Shown here in pieces: positions 6,530-45,480 of a stretch of DNA of 64,000 nucleotides. The position numbers and the translations under genes are program-made. Location: assembly GCA_041660485.1 (NCBI GenBank), contig JBAZWF010000001.1, positions 474,224-538,223 of the forward strand, given 5' to 3'. The notes beneath the pieces are model-generated. The model searched no databases, was not told the origin of the DNA, and was given only the letters and a program-made list of their open reading frames with translations. The DNA is from Candidatus Pacearchaeota archaeon. GTDB lineage: Archaea > Nanobdellota > Nanobdellia > Pacearchaeales > GW2011-AR1. Position 1 is the stretch's first letter, and each line of letters starts with the position of its first letter.

Positions 6530-6630
6530 ATTTAGTAAACATCCCATATTAGTTTGTGCTACGCAAAACCTTGCTAATTTTAAGCTGTTTAAACATAGAT
6601 GAATTAGTTATATAATCTCAATCTCATAAA
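6530..6630. repeat. about 100-nt dispersed intergenic repeat, copy A (contains bulged hairpin gtttgtgc-tac-gcaaaac)
   Basis: Aligns by eye with 19719..19815 ('ccc[a/t]tat[t/a]ag[t/a]tttgtgct[a/t]cgcaaaacc ... aattagtt[-/t]ata[t/c]aa[-/a]tctcaatc'). 'tttagtaaacatcccat' recurs at 19873..19890. Confidence 0.6.
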
Positions 6631-6714: not shown

Positions 6715-7362
6715 TTACACAAAAATCCCCTTTTTCAAGAACCAAAGTCCAAGTATAACTAATAATACAACCATTAATATTCTTCCGTATTTTCTTAAAA
6801 GTCTGCCTAAAAACTCAAGAATCTTCTTAGAAGATTTAGGGAAAATGAAATAAATTAAAAGAGGTAAAGCAGCAGCCATAATAAGCATTATACTAGAAAA
6901 CAAAAATAAAATAAATTGATTAAAAATAGCAATTCCAGATTCAGAAATTTCATTTATTGAAATTAAATAAAGTGCTTCAGCATCAATATTACTAATACTT
7001 GCAATAAAACCCAAACCAAAAAACAACCATAATTTAATTATATTTCCTTCTTTTTTATTAGGAGCTTTTTCTTTTCTCTCATAAAAATAAACTTTATATG
7101 CAAATACTAAAAGTAAAATTCCAAATATAATATCTAAAACCCGGACAGCACCTGAAAAATTATCATGCAAACTTGTTCCAATAAACATCCAAGCTAAAAA
7201 TAAAATAATCAAAGTTAAAATATTCCCAAGAAGAAACAAAAAGCTCTTGGTTATTGGCTTAACTTTGCTGCTTAATAAAAGAACAGCAACTGCAAATATG
7301 CCTGGAGAAAGAAGAAGCATTCCAAACCCAAGTGTCAACACCTCAATAATTAAACTTAACAT
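6715..7362 (-). CDS. multi-pass membrane protein
   Basis: 215-aa ORF with about 6 hydrophobic helices. Confidence 0.6.
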   Translation of the reverse strand: MLSLIIEVLTLGFGMLLLSPGIFAVAVLLLSSKVKPITKSFLFLLGNILTLIILFLAWMFIGTSLHDNFSGAVRVLDIIFGILLLVFAYKVYFYERKEKAPNKKEGNIIKLWLFFGLGFIASISNIDAEALYLISINEISESGIAIFNQFILFLFSSIMLIMAAALPLLIYFIFPKSSKKILEFLGRLLRKYGRILMVVLLVILGLWFLKKGIFV

Positions 7363-38853: not shown

Positions 38854-39687
38854 ATGGATCAATCAATCCCCATTAAAGAGGCATTTCAAAAAGTTAAAGA
38901 AGATGTATCAAATCTCAAATTTGAACTCTCAAGTATAAAATCTGAGCTTGATGAAATACAGCGTTCTATTTTATTACTTTTGTCATCATTAGATTCAGTT
39001 AAATATCAGCAAAAAACATTTATTCAACAAATTCAACAGACAGACAATCAGACAGACAGACAATCAGACACTTCGACACATAATCAGACACATAATTCGA
39101 CAGAAAACCCTAAAAATTCAACACTTCGACACATAAATAAGACAGAAAAAGCCTCTTCAACACATCCTTCGACACATAATTATGGCTTTCAGGACTTAAA
39201 AGGGTTAAATATCCATATTTCCACAGGAAATAGGGGGGTTTCGACAGACAGACAGACAGACAATCAGACAGACACTTCGACAGGAAATAGGGGGGTTTCG
39301 ACACATCCTTCGACACATAATTTATCCTCGACAATCAAGGAATCTACACAAATTACCTCTCCAAATCCTTTAGCTGTTCTTAATCAGCTTGATAATCTCA
39401 AAAAAGAGATACGTCTTAAATTTAAACGTCTAACTCCTCAAGAAATGCTTGTTTTTTCTTCCATATATCAATTTGAGGATCAAGGTCATCTCGTGGATTA
39501 TACCCTACTTTCAACTCATTTAAACATCTCTGAAAGCTCAATTCGAGATTATATTCAAAGACTCATAATTAAAGGAATTCCCCTCGATAAAGAGAAAATT
39601 AATAACAAAAAAATAGTTCTTCATATCTCGCAGGAATTAAGAAAACTTGCAACCCTTGATACGTTAATTAGCCTAAGAGACCTTTGA
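38854..39687 (+). CDS. coiled-coil / repeat-linker / C-terminal wHTH protein (paralog type A)
   Basis: N-terminal heptad-like 'VSNLKFELSSIKSELDEIQRSI'. Thr/His/Asn/Gln linker built from DNA repeats (TTCGACA x9, two 21-nt and two 18-nt modules). C-terminal 'LTPQEMLVFSSIY...LLSTHLNISESSIRDYIQRLIIKG'. Confidence 0.6.
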   Translation: MDQSIPIKEAFQKVKEDVSNLKFELSSIKSELDEIQRSILLLLSSLDSVKYQQKTFIQQIQQTDNQTDRQSDTSTHNQTHNSTENPKNSTLRHINKTEKASSTHPSTHNYGFQDLKGLNIHISTGNRGVSTDRQTDNQTDTSTGNRGVSTHPSTHNLSSTIKESTQITSPNPLAVLNQLDNLKKEIRLKFKRLTPQEMLVFSSIYQFEDQGHLVDYTLLSTHLNISESSIRDYIQRLIIKGIPLDKEKINNKKIVLHISQELRKLATLDTLISLRDL

Positions 39688-39951
39688 TATCTCTTCCTAA
39701 ATCGCTCTACCGAATAATTATTCCCACTACTTTTTTTATACTTTTCTCTTTTATTTTTCCAAAATTTTTCTTTGAAAACTTGGTTTTAAATTTAACTATT
39801 AATAGATTTAAATAACTTTAGCCCCTACAATCACCTCCTTTACCCACTACATCTTCTCTCTTTTTCCCCTGAGTAATTAATTTTCTTCTTTCCCCAAAGA
39901 AGTAACTAACCTCATTATCATTTATTTTTTTCTTCATTTTTGATATTTTGC

Positions 39952-40240
39952 CTCACTTTTACTTGTTCACTACATTTTTCTTGTTTTTTATCACTTTTTA
40001 ACCACTAACAAACTCTCACTTTTACGTTTTCCCCTATATTTTGCTTACATATTTTATCCTTTTTTCAGTGATCTTTTGCCTATTTAACTCTCACTTTTAC
40101 GTTTTAAGCCCATTTTTCCCCAAAAATAGCTTCTTTAACTCTCACTTTCACTGTTTTGAGCACTTTTTCCCCTATTTTTTACTCTTTTTCTCAGGTTTTA
40201 CTCTCACTTTCACTGTTTTGAGTATTTTTTCCCTCATTTC
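39952..40240. repeat. five direct copies of a CTCACTTT[T/C]AC.. unit (spacing 63/75/51/62 bp) in a pyrimidine-skewed non-coding tract
   Basis: 'ctcact' occurs at 39952, 40015, 40090, 40141 and 40203. Copies 2-3 share 'aactctcacttttacgtttt'; copies 4-5 share '[a/t]actctcactttcactgttttgag'. In addition, '[c/t][c/t]cactac' occurs at 39723, 39843 and 39966 (about 120-bp period). Confidence 0.7.
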
Positions 40241-40789
40241 TCCCGGGATATATACTCTTTTCTTTCCGCTTAGCTCCACAGACTCCTCTATTAGGCCCTC
40301 ACTTTTCTGTTTTATGCTATTTATTTGGCCTCGAATAGTTGACCGAGTTTTTCCTAACATCGCAGCTAAATCATCATAACTTAGCTTAAGATCATTGTTT
40401 GCCAATACCCATATTATTGCTCTTTCAGTTACAGATAAATTTGAAAATCCATTAAAATTACCTGTTTGAACAGCTGTTTGAACAGCTGTTTGAACACCTT
40501 CAACAGCTGTTTGTTTATGATAAACAGGCTTAGCTGTTTTAAACAGCTGCTTAGAAACATTTTCCCCATACATTGCCATAACATCTTTAAGCTGTTCAAT
40601 CTCATCTTTCATCGACGTAATATCTCCCTTAAGCTCATCTAAACGGGTGTTTAAAGTAATATCTTGGTTGTTTAAGTGAGTTACCCAAGCACCAACTTTG
40701 TCAATATCATTTTTTACGAGTTCAAAAGACCTTTTTGTCTCTTCATGCATAGAATTAAGTTCTCTTTTTTTTGAAAACCAGTTAAACAT
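40172..40789 (-). CDS. coiled-coil / repeat-linker / C-terminal wHTH protein (paralog type B)
   Basis: N-terminal 'LNTRLDELKGDITSMKDEIEQLKDV'. Linker 'QTAVEGVQTAVQTAVQT' encoded by tandem CAGCTGTTTGAA. C-terminal 'LSVTERAIIWVLA...LAAMLGKTRSTIRGQINSIKQKS'. The 3' end runs into the repeat array. Confidence 0.6.
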   Translation of the reverse strand: MFNWFSKKRELNSMHEETKRSFELVKNDIDKVGAWVTHLNNQDITLNTRLDELKGDITSMKDEIEQLKDVMAMYGENVSKQLFKTAKPVYHKQTAVEGVQTAVQTAVQTGNFNGFSNLSVTERAIIWVLANNDLKLSYDDLAAMLGKTRSTIRGQINSIKQKSEGLIEESVELSGKKRVYIPGEMREKILKTVKVRVKPEKKSKK

Positions 40790-40828
40790 ATTATTTATTG
40801 ACGGAGATACTATATAAATGTTTCGTTT

Positions 40829-40980
40829 TAAACAGCTGTTTAAACACTCATAAACACCATTTTATTAACTTAAACACCCGCCAATTTGAAAAAAACAGCT
40901 GTTTAAACACCCATAAACACCCATTTTATCGTCGATAAATTAAAAAATATCAAAAAAAACCATAAACACCCTCATTTTCA
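40829..40980. repeat. iteron-like direct repeats upstream of 40172..40789
   Basis: 'aaacagctgtttaaacac[t/c]cataaacacc[-/c]attttat' occurs at 40829 and 40893 (64-bp period), with a third 'cataaacaccctcatttt' at 40961. TAAACAC occurs 6 times in about 130 bp. Confidence 0.7.
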
Positions 40981-42955: not shown

Positions 42956-43630
42956 ATGATAAAAAAATTTAAAAAAGTAGTGGATAAACACCCATCTAAA
43001 CACCTGTTTAAAAGTCAAACAAATACTAAAGAAATTAAAGTAATTATTTTTGATGTTGGAGGAGTTTTGCTAAAAAGTAGAAACAAGTCTATACATGAAT
43101 ATATGTCTAAAAAATTAAAAGTTAGCTTAGAAGATTGGTTTGACTCAATTGAACAATACTGGGATGAAATGATAAAAGATGAATCAACAACTAACTATGG
43201 GTTAACCCAAATAGCAAGACATTATCATATTCCCAAGTATAAATTAGAAGCTATGTTTACTAAAGGTTTTAAAAAAATATTTAGAAAAGACTATAGAATG
43301 TTCAGACTTTTAAAAAAGCTAAAGAAAACCTATAAAATAGCTATACTTTCAGACCAGCTACTAATGTCTTATAATGCCTTTAAAAAATATAGATTTGATG
43401 AAAGAGTTGATTTAGCTATTTGGTCTCATAAAGAAGGGGTTAGAAAACCAAATATTGAAATTTATCAACTTATTGTTAAGCGCTTAAAAGTTCCTGCTGA
43501 AAGTTGTCTGTTTATTGACAACCGGGACTGGAATTTAATACCTGCAAAAAAAATTGGCATGAAGTTTATTCTTTTTCAAAATTTTAGACAGTTGTTTAAT
43601 CAGCTTAAAGTTTTGGGGGTGAAAATATGA
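42956..43630 (+). CDS. HAD-superfamily hydrolase
   Basis: Motif I variant 'IIFDVGGVL', 'ILSDQ', 'KPNIEIY', 'FIDNRDWN'. ATGA overlap with the recombinase gene. Confidence 0.7.
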   Translation: MIKKFKKVVDKHPSKHLFKSQTNTKEIKVIIFDVGGVLLKSRNKSIHEYMSKKLKVSLEDWFDSIEQYWDEMIKDESTTNYGLTQIARHYHIPKYKLEAMFTKGFKKIFRKDYRMFRLLKKLKKTYKIAILSDQLLMSYNAFKKYRFDERVDLAIWSHKEGVRKPNIEIYQLIVKRLKVPAESCLFIDNRDWNLIPAKKIGMKFILFQNFRQLFNQLKVLGVKI

Positions 43631-44379
43631 CTAACCCCTTAGCAGCAATTTATATAAGAGTTTCAACAGAAGATCAGGTAAAATTTGGAATTTCTCTAAA
43701 TGCCCAACAAGAAGCACTTGAAAACTATTGCAAAGCATTAAGCTATGATATTTTTAAGCTCTATAAAGATGAAGGAAAATCAGGCAAGGATCTCACCCAT
43801 CGCCCAGCAATGCAAGAAATGTTAAGGGATGCAGAATCTCATAAATTTCAAGCAATTTTTATTTATAAGCTTGATAGATTTTCAAGAAGTTTAATGGATT
43901 TAATAACTACAATTGACAAACTTAAAACTTTAGGGGTTGATTTTGTTTCTCTACAAGATAAACTTGAAACAACTTCTGCATCAGGTAAATTAATGTTTCA
44001 TATTATCTCTGCATTTGCAGAATTTGAAAGAAATGTTACAAGTGAAAGGACTAAGTTTACCATGTCAAAAAAAGCCCGTGATGGAAGCGTTGTAACCCGT
44101 GCACCTTTAGGCTATAAAATATCTGATAAAAAGCTAGTTCCTGCTGAAAATTCTTTTATCATCTCTGAAATTTATCATAGTTTTATTAATAACAATATAA
44201 GCCTAACTCAACTAAGCAAGAAGTATAATCTTTCTGTTAATGGGCTGAAAAAAGTTCTTACAAATCAGACATATTTAGGTAAAATAAAGTTTAGCGGAGG
44301 AATTTCCCAAGGCACTCATCCTCCTCTTCTTTCAGAAGAGCTTTTTAATAAAGTTCAGGGAAAGCTAAATAAAAGTTAA
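43627..44379 (+). CDS. serine recombinase (resolvase/invertase-type catalytic domain + C-terminal extension)
   Basis: 'AAIYIRVSTEDQ' (catalytic Ser), 'YKLDRFSRS', 'AEFERNVTSERTK'. Confidence 0.85.
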   Translation: MTNPLAAIYIRVSTEDQVKFGISLNAQQEALENYCKALSYDIFKLYKDEGKSGKDLTHRPAMQEMLRDAESHKFQAIFIYKLDRFSRSLMDLITTIDKLKTLGVDFVSLQDKLETTSASGKLMFHIISAFAEFERNVTSERTKFTMSKKARDGSVVTRAPLGYKISDKKLVPAENSFIISEIYHSFINNNISLTQLSKKYNLSVNGLKKVLTNQTYLGKIKFSGGISQGTHPPLLSEELFNKVQGKLNKS

Positions 44380-44985: not shown

Positions 44986-45480
44986 TTAAATAAAATTTAT
45001 TTTGTCTCCGATAGAAATATTATTTTTTTCAACTTCCCCTGCATTTAATTCTAAAACATATATTGTATTTTCATTTGGTTTATATATTTCACATTTACTT
45101 TCTTTACAAGGCAGAGCATTTTCTTTAATATAAACAACCTTTTTATTTTCATCAATCCAGATTATATCTAAAGCAATTAAAGTGTTTTTCATCCAGAAAT
45201 TATAAATCCCTTTATCCTCAAAAATAAACAACATGCCACTATTTTCATTTAATTTTTCTCTAAACATTAATCCTCTTTCTCTTTCAACACTTGTTTGTGC
45301 TAACTCTACCGAAAAACAACGCTGTTTGAAGCATACTTTATTTGTTTGAACAGCTGTTTGTTTAATTATTTGCCCTGTTTGAACAGCTGTTTGCTGTTTA
45401 ACTAGATTATAAACAACTAAAAATGTAATGATTATCACTAAAATTATTAATAGATAATTAATTTTATTTAATCTTTTCAT
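44986..45480 (-). CDS. DUF192 family protein with N-terminal anchor
   Basis: 'RERGLMFRE...GMLFIF......FWMKNTLIALDIIWID' pattern. The N-terminal linker carries the QTAVQT/CAGCTG repeats. Confidence 0.7.
   Translation of the reverse strand: MKRLNKINYLLIILVIIITFLVVYNLVKQQTAVQTGQIIKQTAVQTNKVCFKQRCFSVELAQTSVERERGLMFREKLNENSGMLFIFEDKGIYNFWMKNTLIALDIIWIDENKKVVYIKENALPCKESKCEIYKPNENTIYVLELNAGEVEKNNISIGDKINFI

Follow-up and report, generated by a model that had tools for sequence, protein, structure and literature searches.

The DNA described here is a 64,000-nucleotide stretch (the window) of contig JBAZWF010000001.1 from a Candidatus Pacearchaeota archaeon (assembly GCA_041660485.1), and our subject is a pair of convergent genes within it, A and B (identical to the NCBI proteins WC781_03210 and WC781_03215, respectively, of an 856,651-bp contig). 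The pair lies 1.5–3.5 kb from a predicted chromosomal replication origin (oriC), in a conserved replication island (Table 1). AlphaFold2 models built with family alignments have the same parts in both proteins: a long helix (residues 4–61 in A), a low-confidence coil, and a winged helix with the topology helix-helix-helix-strand-strand (residues 195–258 in A; the remaining boundaries are given in Table 1). This agrees with the shared architecture proposed in a first-pass annotation of the window, which had also described the linkers between the helix and the winged helix as made of nucleotide repeats, as indeed they are. That annotation took the two linkers for unrelated low-complexity sequence, whereas each turns out to be a defined motif array kept throughout its family. 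In the family alignments the peptides ISTGNxGV(S/P)TDRQTDxQTD in A and KQTAVxxVQTxVQTxVQT in B are near-invariant, and the A motif or a close variant of it occurs in nearly all of 134 further family A representatives. Both peptides fall in the low-confidence, coil-predicted regions of the models.

We compared the coding DNA of the two families codon by codon. A scan of species-representative genomes returned 476 stretches encoding a relative of B, and 80 of these loci (numbered L0xx) were fetched; the DNA scanned for motifs consisted of these 12-kb loci and the one 64-kb window. Codon alignments were made of 75 A genes, all full-length, and 81 B genes from species-level genomes, with control genes from the same genomes, and a column was called frozen if at least 80% of its codon entropy was removed, a statistic that ignores kinship. 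By this measure 13 of 91 columns are frozen in A, all between residues 83 and 139, and 13 of 101 in B, at residues 85–111, 163, 187 and 194–195, compared to none of the 400 control columns (cdc6, 0/269; the PRC-barrel gene, 0/58; a gene for a 151-residue protein, 0/30; a gene for an 87-residue winged-helix protein, 0/43). In the helices and winged helices of A and B, synonymous codons vary as in the background. Synonymous sites are likewise free to vary over residues 176–277 of A, indicating ordinary purifying selection on the protein there.

The individual frozen codons are close to invariant, even where they are rare ones (TCC for serine, GGG for glycine, GAC for aspartate, CAA for glutamine). 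Those of A include Ser123 (TCC, 75/75), Gly125 (GGA, 68/68), Gly128 (GGG, 74/75), Val129 (GTT, 69/69) and Asp132 (GAC, 68/68), with threonine written ACA throughout. In B, Gln104 and Gln108 are CAA in 80 of 80 genes, Val96 is GTT in 78 of 79, Lys194 is AAA in 80 of 80 and Val195 is GTG in 78 of 79. Within the B repeat of 70 orthologues, glutamine is written CAA without exception (208/208; outside the motif, 63%), valine is never GTA (0/210, against 26% outside), alanine is always GCT (74/74) and glycine always GGT (49/49). Moreover, the same nucleotides are read in two frames. CAGSTGTT encodes T-A/G-V 150 times across the B orthologues (ACA-GST-GTT, codons 94–109) and Q-L/V-F 54 times (CAG-STG-TTT-AAA, Q-L/V-F-K/N, codons 81–84 and 88–91). 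In A, the residues that do vary (the x of GNxG, and T, I, S or N at position 124) sit at the degenerate positions of a DNA box described below, and a 29-nucleotide stretch of the linker is 100% identical in 14 metagenome contigs, although in the 11 of these with a complete C-terminal domain only 22–73 of its 105 residues match those of the window. Together with the frozen codons, the use of two frames, the coincidence of variable residues with degenerate DNA positions and the 29-nucleotide identity that outlasts that of the protein make it very probable that selection on the linker motifs acts on their nucleotides and not on the peptides.

The box in A resembles an origin recognition box (ORB), the class of site found at the predicted oriC. 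The peptide ISTGNxGV is encoded by TTTCCAnnGGAAAT-NNN-GGGG, which matches the two inverted ORBs of oriC 1.85 kb away, and in the window the DNA for ISTGNRGV reads ATTTCCACAGGAAATAGGGGGGTT, a mini-ORB dyad that carries the conserved TTCC and GAA motifs of published ORBs (PMC1904270). The site is written TTTCCACAGGAAAT in gene A of the window and TTCCAGTGGAAAT, TTTCCATAGGAAAT and similar sequences in its orthologues. A 3-nucleotide spacer precedes the G-string GGGG(GG), just as in both oriC boxes (GAAAT-GAG-GGT and GAAAC-CAA-GGG), and both the core and the G-string fit the published ORB consensus GTTCCAGTGGAAAC...GGGGG (PMC1868953). An ORB pattern finds three matches in the window, where 0.11 are expected: the two oriC boxes and the gene A site. 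Taken from the window alone, the match in A is no more than suggestive.

The comparison across the fetched loci is decisive. Over 835 kb, a weight matrix built from the oriC boxes only has 87 matches of at least 16 bits in A genes, none in any other gene and 19 in other spacers, and the best of those 19 are found at the ends of loci, just past the PRC gene, which is the expected place of oriC. Conversely, the gene A sites yield a matrix whose matches elsewhere lie almost only in the spacers between cdc6 and the PRC gene (22 matches), plus 5 matches upstream of B. The dp1 gene has only a few weak ORB-matrix matches. Over 51 loci, the box in A and the oriC boxes are a median of 1.8 kb apart, and the box in A has no unwinding element of its own. 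By its sequence, the gene A box is indistinguishable from the initiator boxes of the origin, and by analogy with ORB3 in dp1 of other archaea it would count as an outlying box. Some genomes carry more than one. Weaker second matches lie at the same position as the second partial ORB of the window (Table 1) in gene A of L006, L007 and L013, while inverted pairs 57 bp apart occur in gene A of L015 (~7000–7084), L036 (~7247–7331) and L042 (~7031–7115), with the G-strings facing inward and a (GACA/AACA)n tract between them. In L041 and L047 an ORB followed by CTTCGACACAT stands upstream of B, and L024 and L080 have weaker ORB-like matches there.

The linker of B is built from a different element. 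Its (VQTx)n repeat is encoded by the 12-bp unit GSTGTTYAAACA, which is palindromic and of the kind bound by dimeric winged-helix proteins, and a perfectly palindromic form, TGTTTAAACAGCTGTTTAAACA, lies upstream of B in most genomes. In the window the repeat is a tandem of CTGTTTGAACAG (40,462–40,496; 2.9 copies, 100% identity) encoding (A/G)VQT three times. With up to one mismatch, GSTGTTYAAACA has 15 matches in the window against 1.6 expected, and AACAGCTGTT has seven copies, five of them at the B locus. Across orthologues the array is held at about three in-frame 12-nucleotide units, and the units within one B gene are homogenised at two free positions (GTC or GTT; GCT, GGT or CCT).

Upstream of B in the window, the perfect palindrome TTTAAACAGCTGTTTAAA(CAC) occurs as two copies 63 bp apart (40,827–40,848 and 40,890–40,911), accompanied by GGTGTTTA half units at 40,851, 40,871, 40,914 and 40,963 and by the palindrome TTATCGTCGATAA at 40,926–40,938. 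As read from the sequence itself, the proximal copy lies directly upstream of a TATA-like TTTATATA, ~25–30 nucleotides before the start codon of B. Over the 80 loci, the 600 bp upstream of B contain 2.2 copies of AACA[GC][GCT]TGTT per kb and the rest of the DNA 0.057 per kb, a 38-fold difference, and TGTTTAAA is present upstream of B in 73 of 80. The upstream consensus GGSTGTTTAAACAGSTGTTTA differs from the coding consensus GSTGTTCAAACAGSTGTTCA only in having TAA in place of CAA; thus the upstream form is a perfect palindrome that no reading frame can carry. B-type units also occur in a gene unrelated to the pair. A DUF192 membrane protein (44,986–45,480, minus strand) has two exact copies of GCTGTTCAAACA (45,343–45,354 and 45,376–45,387) in the linker that follows its membrane helix, where they encode QTAVQT twice, and in its L002 and L010 orthologues the corresponding position reads KQQTPVQT. 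Gene B is thus not the only gene with such units. In L003, L007, L008, L009, L040 and L079, TGTTTAAACAGCTGTTT is also present in other spacers no more than 6 kb from the pair, and the window itself has one exact GCTGTTTAAACA, in a spacer at 6,584–6,595; such dispersed copies suggest a dispersed set of sites, either a regulon or nucleoid-protein sites.

Two other motifs are shared between B and its surroundings. The unit AAAGTGAG(A/G)G occurs twice in B of the window, at 40,296–40,305 (codons 162–165) and 40,201–40,210 (codons 194–197, KVRV), and again in the spacer between A and B at 40,139, 40,088 and 40,013, with a degenerate copy at 39,951. The k-mer AAAGTGAG is found in this spacer in 66 of the 80 loci, while of the copies of AAAGTGAGAG 62 are at the 3' end of B, 51 are in the A–B spacer and three are elsewhere. 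In most genomes AAAGTGAGAGT, which stands at B codons 194–197 and 162–165, has one to five more copies in the A–B spacer. The other motif, the palindrome TTATCGWCGATAA, is also found at B codons 57–60 in orthologues, with the rare codon TCG at Ser58 in 67 of 75. The flanking spacers vary in length from 51 to 785 bp.

Around its box, the linker of A carries further repeats, with TTCGACA(CAT) units and a (GACA)n tract after the box, and those listed by the first-pass annotation in both genes were all recovered: nine copies of TCGACA, eight of them as TTCGACA, three duplicated modules in A and the 12-nucleotide tandem in B. The nine copies lie on the plus strand between 39,073 and 39,328; the rest of the 64 kb contains two, both on the minus strand. 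The duplicated modules are ACAGGAAATAGGGGGG (39,223 and 39,280), ACACATCCTTCGACACATAAT within two 26-nucleotide copies (39,156–39,181 and 39,297–39,322), and a 16-nucleotide unit, ACAGACAGACAATCAG, found by Tandem Repeats Finder as 2.2 copies of 100% identity at 39,036–39,070. The G runs described as seven nucleotides long are in fact GGGGGG, at 39,233 and 39,290, and the window contains one other copy. Gene A orthologues write the TCGACA unit as TTCGACA or TCCAACA (TYCRACA), with successive units spaced most often by 12 and 72 bp, and the ACA codons are frozen throughout the family at T83, T107 and T131. In the window, the three family-wide TYCRACA copies (codons 82–83, 106–107 and 130–131) are exactly 72 bp apart. 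Here too a tenth (10%) of copies are in other reading frames, for example CTT-CGA-CAC (LRH) at 39,124, and about 20 copies of TTCGACA or TCCAACA occur in non-coding DNA upstream of B over the 80 loci. (GACA)3 is found 210 times in gene A and once elsewhere in these loci, and the codons GAC, AGA, CAG and ACA are frozen in the (GACA)n tract of A. Shortly past gene A, ~20 nucleotides after its stop codon, CTACCGAATAAYT (39,708–39,722) is conserved in 35 of 80 loci, with TATTCGGT as the k-mer of the other strand.

Table 1. Genes, predicted origin and motif arrays at the A–B locus (positions in the window)
Feature	Position	Strand	Details
Gene A	38,854–39,687	+	Open reading frame, 277 aa; N-terminal long helix, disordered middle (aa 62–171), C-terminal winged helix
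Gene B	40,172–40,789	-	Open reading frame, 205 aa; N-terminal long helix 2–76, disordered middle 77–119, winged helix 120–192, basic tail
ORB-like box in A, ATTTCCACAGGAAATAGGGGGGTTTCGACA	39,217–39,246	+	Codons 122–131 (ISTGNRGVST); mini-ORB dyad, 3-nt spacer, G-string, then TTCGACA
Second partial ORB in A, ACAGGAAATAGGGGGGTTTCGACA	39,280–39,303	+	57 bp downstream of the first, direct orientation
First CAGACA/(GACA)n tract of A	39,036–39,070	+	QTDNQTDRQSD; period 16, (GACA)2-3 runs
(GACA)5-ATCA-(GACA)2 tract of A	39,243–39,274	+	Directly after the ORB G-string; encodes DRQTDNQTD
Nine TCGACA copies (8 TTCGACA)	39,072–39,333	+	Five within (A/C)(C/T)TTCGACACATAA units
Tandem 12-bp units of B, GSTGTTCAAACA	40,462–40,513	-	Three exact, codons 98–109, GVQT-AVQT-AVQT; preceded by AAACAAACAGCTGTT (KQTAV)
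B unit in other frame, AAGCAGCTGTTTAAAACA	40,538–40,557	-	K-Q-L-F-K-T, codons 80–85
Non-coding array upstream of B	40,827–40,970		TTTAAACAGCTGTTTAAA(CAC) palindromes, GGTGTTTA half units, TTATCGTCGATAA palindrome
AAAGTGAG(A/G)G units	39,951–40,305	- (B-sense)	Two inside B, three or four in the A–B spacer
Predicted oriC core	37,170–37,386		Inverted ORBs TTTCCAGTAGAAATGAGGGT (37,170–37,189, -) and TTTCTATAAGAAACCAAGGG (37,367–37,386, +) flanking an AT-rich unwinding element
orc1/cdc6	35,722–36,930	-	Presumed ORB reader; Pfam Cdc6_C 2e-27, Cdc6_lid 3e-26

The spacer between orc1/cdc6 and the PRC-barrel gene (830 bp, 36,931–37,762) has the anatomy of an archaeal oriC and is our predicted chromosomal origin. 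Between its two boxes lie the longest A/T-only run of the window (52 nucleotides, 37,281–37,332) and its most AT-rich 100-bp windows. We considered and rejected a second origin at the A–B spacer or upstream of B, where the GC content is 0.28–0.29 and there is no AT-only stretch, compared to 0.19 and the 52-nucleotide run at oriC. On one side of oriC a minus-strand replication island (29,230–36,930) holds cdc6 and the genes for the DNA polymerase D subunits DP1 (34,109–35,692) and DP2 (29,230–34,170), the latter containing an intein with a LAGLIDADG domain; Thermococcales have the same cdc6-dp1-dp2 gene order beside oriC. On the other side come the PRC-barrel, 151-residue and 87-residue winged-helix genes, then A and B. 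Within 37,763–38,799, the 151-residue protein has no family match and the 87-residue protein matches HTH_69 below the cut-off, and these three genes are kept in 63–72 of the 80 loci (87-residue protein, 72; PRC-barrel, 64; 151-residue protein, 63). A is convergent with B in all 80, and orc1/cdc6 is present at 51, a count limited by contig ends. A few kilobases upstream of B, genes for a HAD-family hydrolase and a serine recombinase (42,956–44,379) recur in 27–30 of 80 loci; a recombinase conserved near an origin region is unusual. Scans of the window for tRNAs and Rfam families gave no match, so the large spacers are not known RNA genes.

The search for relatives proposed by the first-pass annotation revealed large families, with ~1989 homologues of A and ~2642 of B (clusters at 90% identity; 914 clusters at 50% identity for A). 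Family A is DPANN-specific and has no Pfam model. The annotation had further supposed that A and B are paralogues, and formal alignment of the families upholds this: BLASTP gives no alignment of A with B and the relationship is visible only with family profiles, where the C-terminal winged helices match with 96% probability (E 3e-9, 60 columns) and the N-terminal [AS]F..VK.DI helices with 94.9% (E 4e-8). A reversed-profile control gave 2%, and the adjoining 87-residue winged-helix protein (38,536–38,799) gave 0.1–0.3% against either family. Because the profile matches are high while both controls are low, A and B are, as judged from their profiles, genuine distant paralogues whose similarity goes beyond generic winged-helix resemblance. 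Profile comparison revealed no relation of the 87-residue, 151-residue or PRC-barrel proteins to A or B.

Searches of Pfam and NCBIfam with A and B gave only matches below the family cut-offs, the best being HTH_36 (23.4 bits, cut-off 25) and HTH_11 (20.3 bits, cut-off 25), with weak NCBIfam matches to Sta1 (19.6 bits, cut-off 80) and Lrs14 (14.1 bits, cut-off 90). Thus neither protein has a MarR/Lrs14-type sequence match above a curated threshold, and a sequence search of the PDB with both family profiles yielded only coiled-coil noise and HTH matches with E > 0.005. By modelled fold, the C-terminal domain of B is a generic winged helix of the MarR/Lrs14/ORC2 type: the top Foldseek matches are MarR, Lrs14/AbfR2 and ORC2 winged helices over ~76–92 columns (MepR, E 4e-4; AbfR2, E 1.4e-3). 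No relative of B was found on the viral contigs searched, which makes a virus or plasmid module unlikely.

We consider it probable that the middles of A and B are conserved cis-acting DNA motif arrays that are also translated, as disordered linkers, and that together they form an origin-proximal cluster of protein-binding sites. This is the possibility that the first-pass annotation had named as its alternative, DNA sites embedded in the genes, and the frozen codons, the two reading frames, the non-coding copies and the ORB match all speak strongly for it. In such a cluster, the box in A would serve Orc1/Cdc6 as an outlying initiator site, and on balance we judge binding there to be likely. 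Dimers of the coiled-coil winged-helix proteins (B, A or both), joined through their long helices, would occupy the palindromic units in and upstream of B, although whether A or B is what binds the 12-bp unit is an even call on present motif data. The candidate DNA partner of a B dimer is AAACAGCTGTTT, and candidate sites for A, B or the 87-residue winged-helix protein are GSTGTTYAAACA, TTCGACACAT/(GACA)n, AAAGTGAGAGT and TTATCGWCGATAA. The bound proteins may together form an origin-proximal nucleoprotein domain that organises or controls the origin region, and occupancy might feed back on transcription of A and B, since the sites lie in and around both genes. The disordered linkers presumably tolerate whatever peptide the DNA sites dictate, and this would be why sites accumulate there.

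Several observations weigh against this explanation. The gap before the G-string is longer in the published euryarchaeal consensus than the 3 nucleotides seen here (PMC1868953), past the G-string the box in A and the oriC boxes no longer agree (GGGGTTTCGACA versus GGGGTCAGGG), and a pattern made from the oriC boxes only, allowing two mismatches, returns the same three sites in the window against 0.37 expected, a modest improbability. The B units upstream of the gene usually stand 100–290 nucleotides ahead of the start codon, a long distance for a simple archaeal operator. The AAAGTGAGAGT units, within B and downstream of it, all share one strand, and this would suit a role in RNA or termination equally well, and QTAVQT in the unrelated DUF192 protein could point to a peptide function. 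GC skew is negative throughout the predicted oriC with no sign change in the window and is uninformative.

The points just listed bear on two other explanations. The conserved nucleotides might act in the mRNA, as hairpins, protein or small-RNA sites, elements of untranslated regions or terminator context. Every AAAGTGAGAGT unit is in the sense of B, at its 3' end and downstream, where the complementary strand is rich in T, a composition to be expected close to the end of the gene A transcript, and the ORB dyad UUUCC-NNN-GGAAA could fold as a small hairpin. However, the upstream B units are perfect palindromes, which are typical of sites for dimeric DNA-binding proteins, both orientations of the ORB-type box are present at oriC, some A genes have inverted pairs, there is no Rfam match, and the stems are invariant and so offer no covariation. 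An RNA role is plausible for the AAAGTGAGAGT family and less plausible for the palindromes and boxes, and as an account of the conserved nucleotides as a whole we regard it as improbable. Alternatively, STGNxGVSTDRQTDRQTD and KQTAVxxVQTxVQTxVQT might be short linear peptide motifs, for instance sites of partner binding or modification, their uniform codons the product of homogenisation and codon bias. The near-invariance of the peptides in both families would fit, as would the sharing of one unit variant within a gene, a mark of concerted evolution, and the recurrence of QTAVQT in the DUF192 linker. Yet homogenisation cannot hold the same codons in ~80 species while synonymous sites elsewhere in the genes are unconstrained. 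The frame and non-coding data largely refute selection on the peptides: the motif is read in two frames to give different peptides, and the non-coding copies have stop codons in the corresponding frame. The sequence also matches the oriC ORBs, the residues that vary fall on degenerate positions of the DNA motif and AlphaFold2 confidence is low at the motifs, and this leaves a peptide-level explanation with little probability.

The first-pass annotation had leaned towards rapidly evolving, possibly phase-variable linkers, in which slippage in (GACA)n and other repeats would switch the linkers or alter their length within populations. A 4-nucleotide unit in an open reading frame would indeed shift the frame, and at the flanks of the A core the ranges between species are wide (TYCRACA, 0–17 copies; longest (GACA)n, 0–10 units; protein, 215–387 residues), so that part of the claim stands as copy-number variation between species. 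Against it, a slipping tract should be unconserved between species, whereas the linker cores are the most conserved DNA of the genes, frozen in 75–81 genomes. All 75 full-length A orthologues are in frame, the B unit of 12 nucleotides keeps any change in frame and is held at about three copies, and the (GACA)n tract of the window has only five units. One strain assembled from three samples was identical over 4 kb, with no change of repeat length, although this is a single strain and weak evidence; an exact 40-mer search of metagenomes for further strains of the window species gave no match. Population-level switching is accordingly hard to credit. Harder still to credit is that the non-coding copies are functionless fragments of the coding repeats, moved by recombination and now decaying. 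The flanking copies do closely resemble the coding units, and the spacers that hold them differ widely in length. But these copies are kept in 66–73 of 80 species-level genomes and have a consensus of their own, TTTAAA rather than TTCAAA, which makes them perfect palindromes, and decay would leave the frozen synonymous sites inside the genes unexplained.

We return to conserved DNA sites translated as linkers as the preferred explanation. A stronger version of it, which we offer as speculation that is more probably wrong than right, is that Pacearchaeales have in the A–B locus an element dedicated to origin control or segregation, an initiator-titrating or centromere-like domain in which the sites for Orc1/Cdc6 and for A and B are written into the linkers of A and B themselves. 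If this were true, the linkers would owe their existence mainly to their DNA, and a mechanical coupling would tie the expression of A and B to initiator occupancy and the cell cycle. Functional comparators for such a domain are datA and parS. Apart from this, the analysis locates a predicted oriC and its recognition boxes in an uncultivated archaeal order with reduced genomes, and puts forward two or three candidate origin-associated proteins for tests in vitro. It also offers a clean natural case of overlapping codes, in which a family-wide "protein motif" of a disordered region makes better sense as a DNA element, and a warning for the annotation of motifs and intrinsically disordered regions and for the design of recoded genomes.

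The closest known arrangement is in Pyrococcus and Thermococcus, where a cluster of ORB3 and mini-ORBs lies inside dp1 and, in Pyrococcus, is bound by Cdc6/Orc1 in vivo and in vitro (PMC1904270). Like the gene A box, that cluster consists of ORBs in a coding gene a few kilobases from oriC, beside an oriC-cdc6-dp1-dp2 island, and is conserved throughout an order (PMC1904270). In contrast to the dp1 cluster, the box here is carried by a winged-helix gene, across oriC from dp1, and lies within a disordered linker, where it dictates a peptide kept throughout the family. Here it is also accompanied by other motif families and by a paralogous gene with an array of its own, and the binding of Cdc6 is predicted only. 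Bacillus subtilis has a parS site inside spo0J (parB), and origin-proximal clusters of parS are also known. There, as would be the case here, the cis site for an origin-proximal DNA-binding protein is inside the gene for that protein. However, A and B do not have the ParB fold, with weak HTH_ParB matches in only 3 of 46 B members, and several motif families in arrays take the place of one 16-bp site. The conserved cluster from the PRC-barrel gene to B has no ParA/SegA-type ATPase; the only ATPase is Orc1/Cdc6. In iteron-type replicons and bipartite bacterial origins, initiator boxes lie on both sides of or within the genes of the initiator region. Iteron replicons share with this locus direct repeats of ~12 bp and inverted copies near an origin, with winged-helix proteins encoded alongside, and by this likeness the promoter-proximal copies suggest autoregulation. 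They differ in that the initiator here is Orc1/Cdc6 with canonical ORBs, and the 12-bp arrays are 3 kb from the unwinding element and largely coding.

Among archaeal regulators, the MarR/Lrs14 proteins AbfR2 and Sta1 are dimeric binders of palindromes that share the C-terminal fold of B, but in the models of A and B dimerisation would be through an N-terminal helix of 60–75 residues, with a disordered linker of 40–110 residues before the winged helix. In Sulfolobus, a non-ORB origin motif, ucm, is bound by UBP, an abundant non-initiator protein with many other chromosomal sites (PMC12141716). The motifs described here differ from ucm and lie mostly within coding DNA. We found no description in the literature of the A–B gene pair or of ORBs in DPANN coding sequences, and in a Nanobdellota preprint genomes are merely rotated to ORC1. 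Thus, while ORBs in a coding gene beside oriC are already known from dp1 of Thermococcales, what is new here is that the host gene belongs to a DPANN-specific coiled-coil winged-helix family, that the sites are in disordered linkers, so that what passes for a "protein motif" of the whole family is in truth a DNA element, that a paralogous partner carries a different array that spills into both of its flanks, and that the whole arrangement is conserved across several hundred species-level genomes. The gene A box extends the dp1 ORBs of Thermococcales, and suggests that outlying initiator sites in origin-proximal genes may be more widespread among archaea, where they might help to control initiation.

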